A stretch of 64,000 nt of DNA from an uncultured Gammaproteobacteria bacterium (GCA_913060495.1 CAJXRP010000012.1:4092-68091), one strand, 5' to 3'; counted from the stretch's first letter, positions 6,451 through 9,028 are shown. Notes: generated by a model not told the origin, from the sequence alone. Made by a program: numbers and translations.

Positions 6451-6681
6451 GATGCATCTCCTGAATTTGCCGGAATTATGCCGCCAGCTGATTAGCTTAT
6501 TGGTTTAGCTTCTATGGTTGCAGCTGATTAAAGACTATAAGTAATTCTGCGAGAGGAATCAAAGGAATCGGTGGTGTCAGAGCGCCTTGATTCCCAGAAA
6601 AATGTGGATCAAATAATGCCTGCTACGTTACTCTAGTCTTTGATGCCGTTGATTCCTTAATTACTGATTATGGAGATGAAT

Positions 6682-7473
6682 ATGAGCAAGAATAATCCCT
6701 CTGCCCAGCCCTTGGTTGATGCTGAGGCTCTGAGAGATCAAGTCAAACTAAAATACCGTGATGTGGCTACTAACCCTGAGCAGGATTTTCATTTCCACAC
6801 AGGGCGAATGTTGGCGCAGCGCTTAGGGTATGGCGAAGCCATTACTTCTCAACTGCCGGATCATGCGGTGGAGTCTTTCGCAGGTGTAGCGAATCCATTT
6901 TCACTGCGTGATTTGCAGAGCGGGGAAAAAGTAGTAGATCTAGGCTCCGGTGCGGGGTTTGATTGTTTCGTTGCAGCGGCTCTAGTTGGAGACGAGGGCC
7001 AAGTTGTCGGCGTTGACATGACCCCGGAGATGTTGGGTAAGGCGGAAACTTTAGCGGATGGTATGAATTTGAGTAATGTCGAATTCCGAAATGGCTTGCT
7101 TGAAAAACTGCCAGTTGACGATGCCTGGGCAGATGTTGCTATAAGCAATGGTGTGATTAATCTGTGTTCCGACAAGCAAGAGGCCATGGCAGAAATTTAT
7201 CGGATTCTTAAGCCCGGAGGTTATTTGCAGTTTGCAGATATCGCCAATAGCAAGCCTGTACCGCAGTCGGCAATTGAGAATATCGATCTCTGGACTGCTT
7301 GAATCGCCGGTGGCCTGCCGTGTGCAGGCTGGGAGAAGATGTTGAGGGATGCGGGTTTTGTGGATATCCAGATTGGACCCGGAATTGATACGTTTGGCGG
7401 GGCATCGGGAGAGTCTAATGCTAGACAGTTCGGTGTGCTTGGTTATGCGTTTTTGGCAAGAAAGCCGAAGTGA
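6682..7473 (+). CDS. ArsM/UbiE-like SAM-dependent methyltransferase with in-frame UGA (7300-7302): candidate selenoprotein, or a nonsense pseudogene
   Basis: SAM motif VVDLGSGAGFDCF..VVGVDMTPEML. The ORF-track frame stops at ..NIDLWTA(TGA) and continues in the same frame for 56 codons (IAGGLPCAGWEKMLRDAGFVDIQIG..ARKPK) to TGA 7471-7473. The likely start is ATG 6682 (GGAGA SD); ATG 6670 is also possible. Confidence 0.55.
7313..7329 (+). promoter_or_regulatory. SECIS-like hairpin downstream of the in-frame UGA
   Basis: GCCTGC-CGTGT-GCAGGC: a perfect 6-bp stem and a 5-nt loop containing GU. It starts at the 11th nt after the UGA. Confidence 0.35.
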
Positions 7474-7548: not shown

Positions 7549-8391
7549 TTACCAATCTCTTGGGTCAAGCTTGTAATAGTCTTGTAGTTGTTGGTACAGC
7601 TCCTGGTGATAAGCCGCCATCTCCTTCGGCCGCTCAAAGAAAGTCTCAGTAGCTACAGCAAAAAACTCCGCAGGGTTCGTGGCGCCGTATTGATCCATTA
7701 GGCTATGTCTTCCGCGTACCGCGTCTTTTTGTAACTCTTCAAACTCTTCGCTAAATACATGGGCCCAACTTTTATAAGCGCCGTGTGTATTTAGCACTGG
7801 AGCGCCATTGGTTGACCCTGACTCGTGATCTAGCTGATGTGCAAATTCGTGCAGCACAACATTGTGTCCATCTTGTAAATTCATGACGCCTTTCTGCACA
7901 TTGTCCCAGGCAAGCACGACTTTTCCCTGACTCCAAGACTCTCCCAGCATGGCGATGTGATTCGTGGAAACAAGCCCTAGCTCGTTTGCCACTTCGCGTG
8001 TCGCCACAAAGGTGGAGGGATAGACAAGAATGGATTCCAGATCAGGGTAGGGCGTGCGCCCCTGGTTTAAAATCAGTAAGCAGGCTTGTGCCGCGACAGT
8101 CACCCGTATGTCATCGTCAATTTCCTGGCCAGCACAGCCATAGAATGTCTTATCAGCAAGGAAAACCTTGATAAGTAGCTGTAATTGCTCCTGTTTTTCG
8201 AGGGGAATCTTCGCGATAAAAGGCAATCTATCGTTAAGCGTCTTTTTCCACAGTTCAGGAAAAGTCTGTCCTTCAATGTGCGAGAGACGTATACGGGGCC
8301 AGAATACGACGCGAAAAATAACCGCTACTAAAATAAATAGCAGAACTAGTAGCGAGATAATGGCTTGAGTAGTCACGCGCCATAATAACAA
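7549..8391 (-). CDS. zinc metallopeptidase, MtfA/M90-like, with N-terminal TM helix
   Basis: Has HEFAHQLDHESG (HExxH), a downstream ..NPAEFFAVATETFFERP motif typical of the MtfA family, and an N-terminal hydrophobic helix. The start is uncertain (TTG 8391 or an in-frame GTG 15 nt downstream). Confidence 0.8.
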   Translation of the reverse strand: MLLWRVTTQAIISLLVLLFILVAVIFRVVFWPRIRLSHIEGQTFPELWKKTLNDRLPFIAKIPLEKQEQLQLLIKVFLADKTFYGCAGQEIDDDIRVTVAAQACLLILNQGRTPYPDLESILVYPSTFVATREVANELGLVSTNHIAMLGESWSQGKVVLAWDNVQKGVMNLQDGHNVVLHEFAHQLDHESGSTNGAPVLNTHGAYKSWAHVFSEEFEELQKDAVRGRHSLMDQYGATNPAEFFAVATETFFERPKEMAAYHQELYQQLQDYYKLDPRDW

Positions 8392-8446
8392 GTCGTGGTG
8401 TGATAATGCATGCTCTTTGCATGCTATGCCTGTCTGACAGCTATGA

Positions 8447-8716
8447 CTAGAGTGGAGTCGGCACCGAAGAGCTCGAACTTGGTGTATTCAAAGATCTGGT
8501 GCGTCCTTCGAATAAGTCTTGATAGGTCATACATTCTCGACGGCGAATATGACTGCCTACGCTGACCTCTTCTGTGCAGTACACACGATCTAAATATTCA
8601 ACCGTTCGGTTATAGGCGATGACCTCTGCTGGAGTCATGTTGTTGATCCTATTGCTTGGGGCTGCGCAGCACGCGAGAGCGATCAGAATAAGGAATACGC
8701 CACTTAAGTTTTTCAT
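8447..8716 (-). CDS. hypothetical lipoprotein
   Basis: ATG at 8716 with AAGGG SD. MKNLSGVFLILIALACCAAP carries a lipobox-like LIALAC. 89 aa; no family recognised. Confidence 0.6.
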   Translation of the reverse strand: MKNLSGVFLILIALACCAAPSNRINNMTPAEVIAYNRTVEYLDRVYCTEEVSVGSHIRRRECMTYQDLFEGRTRSLNTPSSSSSVPTPL

Positions 8717-8776
8717 TAAATACCCTTGCGAATAGAATATCACTTATTAGACCCTCGTTAGAGAGGGCTCAAATCG

Positions 8777-9028
8777 TTACGCTACAAGCGCATCGAATTC
8801 ACCGCTGGCGGTGCTCGCTAATAACTCCTGATAGCCGCCTATCGACTTATCGCCTACGAAGATCTGCGGTACCGTGCGTTGCCCGGACTTCTGCATGATT
8901 TCTAGCATGAGTTCCTGGTTGCCTTGCATATTAATCTCTTCGAATTCGTAATCCTTGCTTTCTAAGAGGTTTTTCGCTGCAGTGCAGTAGGCGCAGTAAG
9001 TTGAGGTGTAAATAGTAATTGTAGTCAT
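8777..9028 (-). CDS. grxC: glutaredoxin (Grx3-like)
   Basis: 83 aa. Has IYTSTYCAYCTAAKNLL (a CxxC site, CAYC variant), TVPQIFVGDKSIGGYQEL, and typical glutaredoxin length. Confidence 0.85.
   Translation of the reverse strand: MTTITIYTSTYCAYCTAAKNLLESKDYEFEEINMQGNQELMLEIMQKSGQRTVPQIFVGDKSIGGYQELLASTASGEFDALVA

Follow-up and report, generated by a model that had tools for sequence, protein, structure and literature searches.

A probable selenocysteine codon and an associated SECIS-like hairpin in an ArsM-like methyltransferase gene of an uncultured gammaproteobacterium

Arsenite methyltransferase is listed among the experimentally verified prokaryotic selenoprotein families, with the motif UxxG, the model NF008823 and the example WP_011987699.1 (PMC13188914, PMC9312934, citing Fomenko et al. 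2007, Science 315:387), and for 'arsenite S-adenosylmethyltransferase PRK11873' a survey of the marine GOS data found 8 sequences with Sec and 245 with Cys (PMC2398784). In addition, NCBIfam holds three models for ArsM-fusion selenoproteins, all with the same UxxG motif (Haft & Tolstoy 2025, via PMC13188914). Knowledge of Sec/Cys pairs among arsenic methyltransferases dates from 2007, and the findings described below do not overturn existing knowledge. The AsMTs contain four conserved cysteines (44, 72, 174 and 224 in CmArsM), of which Cys174 and Cys224 are the metalloid-binding pair (PMC6138428). [quoted passage not shown]

We analysed a stretch of 64,000 nucleotides from an uncultured Gammaproteobacteria bacterium (referred to, at its full length, as the window), in which the reading frame of an ArsM-like gene is interrupted by an in-frame TGA. 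The features of the gene are as follows.

6682..7473, plus strand: full coding sequence of the ArsM-like SAM-dependent methyltransferase, predicted to encode 263 aa with Sec at residue 207; stop TGA 7471-7473.
6672..6675, plus strand: Shine-Dalgarno-like GGAG, 6 nt before ATG 6682, read directly from the sequence.
6682..7299, plus strand: codons 1-206, annotated in the databases as a whole 206-aa 'arsenite methyltransferase' (P0001 is 100% identical, 206 aa).
7300..7302, plus strand: UGA, candidate selenocysteine U207, aligned with CmArsM Cys224 and lying in a UxxG motif (U-I-A-G).
7303..7470, plus strand: codons 208-263, whose translation requires decoding of the UGA; a helix, the two final beta-strands of the methyltransferase core and a short helix.

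The initial annotation had read the ORF as ending in ..NIDLWTA at TGA 7300-7302 and then staying open for 56 further codons, and the sequence agrees: ...AIENIDLWTA precedes the TGA, and the 56 open codons after it (IAGGLPCAGWEKMLRDAGFVDIQIGPGIDTFGGASGESNARQFGVLGYAFLARKPK; IAGGLPCAGW...ARKPK) lead to TGA 7471-7473, the product being 263 aa plus the stop where about 264 aa had been estimated. A second possible start is present at ATG 6670; ATG 6682 fits the 206-aa length of 35 of the 44 truncated database homologues described below. Among the long ORFs elsewhere in the window (GC content 48.8%), TGA is the least-used stop (8 TGA, 19 TAG and 18 TAA). A global reassignment of UGA was considered and rejected, since TGA serves as an ordinary stop in these 8 of the 45 long ORFs. 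A systematic scan of the window for further TGA read-through candidates gave 31 mechanical hits, none of them plausible except that at 7300; the others had short extensions or overlapped with long ORFs in different frames.

A search of 5.8 billion proteins was carried out, and the best 120 clusters were analysed. We found that 44 of these clusters, which derive from many independent metagenomes and share 77-100% identity with the query, end exactly at ...DLWTA, with lengths of 206, 210 or 214 aa, and that 76 are full-length homologues of 255-275 aa with 60-67% identity. At the column of the UGA, the full-length homologues have Cys in 73 cases and Trp in 2, the search motif being unmatched in the remaining one. 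At the DNA level, TGA occupies this column in 18 species-level genomes from several phyla; the TGA loci of the species-representative genomes are L001, L002, L003, L005, L006, L007, L008, L010, L013, L014, L016, L017, L020-L023 and L025, and their taxa comprise Pseudomonadales, Alphaproteobacteria, Acidimicrobiia/Actinomycetota, Dehalococcoidia/Chloroflexota, Acidobacteriota, Dormiibacterota and Adiutricales. TGC was found at the column in L004, L012, L015, L018 and L039, and the three metagenome contigs of close relatives (L081-L083) all have TGA as well. In every locus compared, the frame runs on to a conserved C-terminus, ...DTFGGA.GE.NAR.F.V.GY.FLARKP. The earlier placement of the UGA at a conserved-Cys position is thus borne out by 73 of the 76 full-length homologues, by the 18 genomes and by the 3 contigs, and the alignment of orthologues that had been proposed as a check gave a column that holds either Cys (TGC/TGT) or TGA and falls on CmArsM Cys224.

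The 44 deposited clusters of this gene (P0001-P0041, P0043, P0093 and P0103; 206-214 aa) are stated to be complete, and some of these truncated entries bear the name arsenite methyltransferase, for example, MFT6825158.1 [Pseudohongiellaceae bacterium]. They are systematically cut off at what is probably a Sec codon.

The initial annotation had also suggested examining whether conservation continues downstream of the UGA, and it does. In comparison with L001, the 150 codons that precede the UGA and the 54 that follow it both gave a dN/dS of 0.09, and the differences after the UGA were distributed over codon positions 1/2/3 as 3/2/19, that is, 19 of the 24 were in third positions. In comparisons with more distant Sec and Cys forms, in which synonymous sites were saturated, pN was ~0.2 on either side of the UGA. 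By this pattern of substitution, the segment after the UGA is evidently translated. An alternative raised earlier was a nonsense pseudogene, in which a simple TGY-to-TGA mutation inactivated an ordinary Cys-containing methyltransferase. Although the product is given as 206 aa by gene callers and in the NCBI/JGI annotation, and Sec machinery was not seen in the 64-kb window, this explanation is effectively refuted: the TGA recurs in 18 species-level genomes that span several phyla, 44 protein clusters with 77-100% identity end at it, and the open frame downstream has a dN/dS of 0.09; the TGA is, moreover, followed by a conserved and covarying hairpin (see below). We therefore give a pseudogene practically no chance of being the correct explanation.

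The Cys-form homologue P0044 was modelled with AlphaFold (pLDDT 88.2, pTM 0.89). Past the Sec/Cys column, the model has helices at residues 211-221 and 241-246 and strands at 224-228 and 250-257, with pLDDT values of 83-98, and this part of it holds the final two strands of the methyltransferase sheet. Since the segment after the UGA would thus supply core strands, a 206-aa product is predicted to be without part of the core. These data bear on the possibility that the UGA is a genuine stop, the 206-aa product being functional and the downstream conservation reflecting a separate small ORF or an RNA element. An ORF of 44 aa does start at ATG 7339 in the same frame, but conservation is already present right after the UGA (IAGGLPCAGW), ahead of this ATG, and in the Cys forms the same segment is part of one continuous protein, in which it provides the two final strands of the Rossmann-type sheet that the 206-aa product would be missing. 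A genuine stop at this position is, in our judgement, extremely improbable.

Shortly after the UGA, the coding sequence contains the following element.

7311..7331, plus strand: bacterial SECIS-type hairpin (putative); stem 7311-7318/7324-7331, with 6 Watson-Crick and 2 G-U pairs; loop CGUGU 7319-7323.

The description given earlier, GCCUGC-CGUGU-GCAGGC at 7313-7329 with a 6-bp stem, is exact in the sequence. GCCUGC (7313-7318) pairs perfectly with GCAGGC (7324-7329) in a 6-bp stem that begins 10 nt past the UGA, two G-U pairs (G7312-U7330 and U7311-G7331) make an extension to 8 bp possible, and the distance from the UGA to the apical loop is 16 nt. The 21-nt hairpin has an energy of -11.8 kcal/mol (z = -3.2), and none of 200 shuffles was equally stable; the wider context of 41-66 nt showed no unusual stability relative to shuffles (z = -1.2 and +0.4), which counts against decoding as selenocysteine. 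Taken from a single sequence, the hairpin is suggestive but not decisive, and it gains its significance when relatives are compared.

When the 18 Sec loci were aligned without gaps, the 8-pair helix was paired in 93.8% of the cells, compared with 26-49% when the register was slid by 1-3 columns. Double-sided changes were present in three pairs (GC<->CG 9:7, CG<->UA 11:3 and one GC->UA), and the observed covariation score was reached by 0 of 500 shuffles. Some of the compensatory changes combine two substitutions, one non-synonymous (Gly->Ala) and the other synonymous (GGC->GGG), so that conservation of the peptide does not account for the helix. In a comparison of four close relatives, with only 84 of 256 codons identical overall, the 11 codons from the UGA onward form the sole fully invariant 11-codon stretch in the gene. 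The equivalent segment in Cys forms has energies of -3.8 (L004) and -1.3 kcal/mol (L012), and the hairpin is missing from most Cys forms. Two observations count against the proposed decoding: the Cys form L018 has one nearby, in a shifted register, and the hairpins of L003, L007 and L008 have an internal mismatch or a shifted register. The divergent Sec forms L016, L017 and L025 keep the stem, with the loop UGGAA. In its CGUGU loop, 8-bp stem, spacing of 16 nt and energy of -11.8 kcal/mol, the window hairpin agrees with the bacterial SECIS model; it resembles the bSECISearch model in the 5-nt loop, the 8-bp stem, the G-U at loop positions 2-3 and the MFE below -7.5, whereas its spacing lies at the lower limit. 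The fdhF SECIS of E. coli presumably has a bulged U, and the window hairpin is without one. The initial annotation had likened this hairpin to the minimal fdhF element, described as a 17-nt upper stem-loop 11 nt from the UGA. The earlier proposal that this hairpin is a SECIS is thus supported by both the published geometry and the covariation, and the comparison among relatives has shown a structurally constrained element with SECIS geometry.

Evidence on the Sec-insertion machinery was also sought. In tblastn searches of the 64-kb window and 80 loci with E. coli queries, no match to selA, selB or selD was better than E = 0.14, and no tRNA-Sec was found in 22 related loci by ARAGORN. A whole-window scan at the Rfam gathering thresholds, together with ARAGORN, returned no RNA family and no tRNA, a result that is neutral as to the SECIS. 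That Sec machinery was not seen in the 64-kb window or in the flanks of the 22 related loci is counted against selenocysteine, as is the presence of Trp in two homologues at the Sec column. In one of these, from Blastococcus deserti (L084:10001-10783; WP_376873747.1, identical to P0042), the codon is truly TGG and the sequence after it is almost identical to the hairpin region of the Sec forms L007 and L008; this TGG looks like a recent TGA-to-TGG conversion that replaced a putative catalytic residue. The second full-length homologue with Trp at this column is P0045.

Recoding of another kind, in which a near-cognate tRNA (Trp or Cys) would read the UGA under stimulation by the hairpin and without Sec machinery, might be suggested by the two Trp (TGG) homologues, of which P0042 retains a hairpin-like sequence downstream, and by the Sec machinery not having been seen in the 64-kb window. 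However, 73 of 76 full-length homologues have Cys at this column, the one place where Cys is near-invariant in the subfamily, and such a pattern is the standard signature of a Sec/Cys pair; in addition, the hairpin matches the geometry of SelB-type bSECIS elements, and the family is already recognised as a selenoprotein family. We consider such non-Sec recoding very unlikely.

The pairing of TGA with Cys in one column, the selection acting downstream and the covariation of the hairpin support selenocysteine, and we hold with high confidence that UGA 7300-7302 is a genuine selenocysteine codon. Decoding of this UGA would yield a 263-aa selenoprotein; the hairpin at 7311-7331, which lies within the coding sequence, may act as a bacterial SECIS that recruits SelB-GTP-Sec-tRNA(Sec) to the ribosome, and translation would then proceed through the last 56 codons. 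In the alignment, Sec207 takes the position of the arsenic-binding Cys224 of CmArsM, and it would most likely serve as a soft-ligand or nucleophilic residue holding the substrate beside the SAM methyl group.

The protein contains the class I methyltransferase domains Methyltransf_31 (E = 1.7e-29), Methyltransf_11 and Methyltransf_25 of Pfam. Its best NCBIfam matches were all to models of ArsM type. The first was NF041537 (ArsM/AhpD selenoprotein), with 224 bits against a cutoff of 510, and scores below the cutoff were likewise obtained with NF008823 (PRK11873, arsenite methyltransferase; 212.9 bits, cutoff 263), NF041536 (ArsM/DUF2284; 207 bits, cutoff 575) and NF047649 (MTase/UXPK-star; 192 bits, cutoff 460). 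The best PDB matches in sequence and fold were CrArsM (5evj), human AS3MT (8xt7) and CmArsM (4fr0/6cx6), the top fold matches, 5evj, 6cx6 and 4fr0, having TM values of 0.66-0.67. On these matches, the protein is assigned to the class I SAM-dependent methyltransferases, in the ArsM/AS3MT lineage. A gap-free alignment to 4fr0_A places U207 on Cys224, G157 on Cys174 and V69 on Cys72, and U207 also aligns with 'LWGEC-LGGAL' of human AS3MT. Residues 1-94 of the window protein contain no Cys, and there is accordingly no equivalent of Cys44. Of the four cysteines that define the AsMTs, the window protein thus keeps Cys224 alone, as the predicted Sec. In an alignment of the subfamily (99 sequences; 18 Sec forms and 81 Cys forms), no column other than that of Sec has a near-invariant Cys (97/99), the Cys72 equivalent is Val in 95/99 and the Cys174 equivalent is Gly in 99/99, and other cysteines of the window protein are poorly conserved (C162 in 52/99 and C214 in 36/99). 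The initial annotation had noted that the Cys of SNC(V) is Gly here, and 'SNGVINLC' is indeed seen instead of the canonical 'SNCVINL'; with three of the four canonical AsMT cysteines lacking from this protein, its doubt about arsenite as the substrate is reasonable. The protein appears to be ArsM-type in fold and in the position of Sec but, by its cysteines, does not qualify as a canonical As(III) methyltransferase, and arsenite as its substrate is uncertain because the equivalents of Cys44, Cys72 and Cys174 are missing.

Two further cysteines are distributed unevenly between the Sec and Cys forms. Eight positions ahead of the Sec column (E199 in the window protein; 'AAVCEIDLWTGC'), a partner Cys is present in 68 of the 81 Cys forms (84%) and in 0 of the 18 Sec forms, and Cys at U+7 (GLPC) occurs in 12/18 Sec forms versus 24/81 Cys forms. 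We do not claim the association of the U-8 Cys with the Sec/Cys state as independent co-evolution, a nearest-neighbour analysis having pointed to one deep split between Sec and Cys clades, and the U-8/U+7 pattern may be phylogenetic rather than functional.

The neighbours of the gene in the window encode an acyl-CoA synthetase, a pectinacetylesterase-like protein, a peptidase M90, a glutaredoxin and a TonB-dependent receptor. No ars-operon genes (arsR, arsC, acr3 and similar) were found beside the gene in the window, nor in L081 or L082. The genes for the peptidase_M90 (MtfA-like) and the small glutaredoxin lie downstream both in the window (7549-9028, minus strand) and in L081 (12171-15829), a relative with 84% identity, the Peptidase_M90 gene being convergent with the methyltransferase gene; this arrangement amounts to synteny conserved at the family level, and no functional link is evident. 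In L014 (~6293) and L018 (2077-2877), a second ArsM-like paralogue lies <=3 kb from the SNG-type gene; this paralogue is of the Cys form and carries the motif 'AAWAGC(I/V)AG'. Different contexts were observed in actinobacteria: in L003 (1547-2992) and L084 (9327-13552), the methyltransferase adjoins an ArsR-type HTH_5/HTH_20-rhodanese regulator, in L012 (4258-5634) and L084 it adjoins a metallo-beta-lactamase-rhodanese fusion (persulfide-dioxygenase-like), and an MFS transporter is also in the neighbourhood in L084. The proteobacterial copies, including that of the window, are without the regulator/rhodanese context. The gene content of the actinobacterial loci hints at sulfur/persulfide (or selenium) chemistry rather than an ars operon.

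A tentative reading, which we regard as possible but rather doubtful, is that the SNG subfamily represents a distinct methyltransferase, not an arsenite methyltransferase, that uses a single catalytic Sec/Cys and acts on another soft nucleophile, e.g. sulfide, persulfide or selenide. It is hinted at by the loss of three of four AsMT cysteines from the window protein, with Val and Gly subfamily-wide in place of Cys72 and Cys174, by the lack in Sec forms of the U-8 partner Cys that 84% of the Cys forms have, and by the actinobacterial context, in which the gene lies between the ArsR-HTH/rhodanese regulator on one side and the MBL/rhodanese fusion with the MFS transporter on the other. If this were true, a single selenol would substitute for the C-x7-C dithiol site.

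Among species representatives, SNG-type genes have TGA in ~18 loci versus TGC in 5-7, and canonical SNC-type ArsMs have TGA in 1 (L059) versus Cys in 49, in a sample biased to the relatives of the query. An unusually frequent use of Sec in the SNG subfamily relative to canonical ArsM is possibly new, subject to the same bias of the sample. The exception, L059 (3487-3546), from a Desulfobacteria MAG, is a canonical 'SNCVINL' ArsM with TGA at the same column (…AYTG*IAGAI…), followed by a hairpin of 8 bp, UCUCACCU-GAUG-AGGUGAGA, whose loop lies 21 nt past the UGA. By its sequence, L059 is a Sec form within the canonical branch, and its putative SECIS is unrelated in sequence to that of the SNG type.

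If the UGA is decoded as proposed, what the annotation presents as complete 206-aa 'arsenite methyltransferases', for this gene and for no fewer than 44 similar database clusters, would truly be 263-aa selenoproteins, and as a consequence of the truncated annotation, surveys of marine arsM genes and of selenoproteomes would miscount and mis-model such genes. The SNG subfamily, in which only the Cys224 equivalent is kept, may offer a clean natural case for the contribution of Sec at a metalloid-binding or nucleophilic site, and it raises the question of whether the 'arsM-like' genes of marine Pseudohongiellaceae and Acidimicrobiia methylate arsenic.

Compared with the arsenite methyltransferase selenoproteins (NF008823), the window protein is alike in fold, in lineage, in the Sec column (UxxG, equivalent to CmArsM Cys224) and in its occurrence in marine bacteria, as well as in having a putative SECIS hairpin in the coding sequence just past the UGA. 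It differs in being without equivalents of Cys44, Cys72 and Cys174 and in being of the 'SNG' and not the 'SNC' type, and the canonical SNC-type Sec form L059 carries a different hairpin. With canonical ArsM/AS3MT, it shares the SAM-binding motif VVDLGSGAG and the Cys224 position, retained as the predicted Sec, whereas it keeps one of the four conserved cysteines, has the Cys174-Cys224 pair broken (G157), is ~100 residues shorter and is without the C-terminal domain and the ars-operon context. The ArsM-fusion selenoproteins (NF041537, NF041536 and NF047649) provide the closest curated match to its methyltransferase domain and have the UxxG Sec motif in common with it; unlike them, the window protein would be a stand-alone selenoprotein of 263 aa with a single Sec, the matches spanning profile positions 9-227 only, and it ends at residue 263, where the fusion proteins have a second domain (AhpD, DUF2284 or UXPK-star) with an additional Sec.
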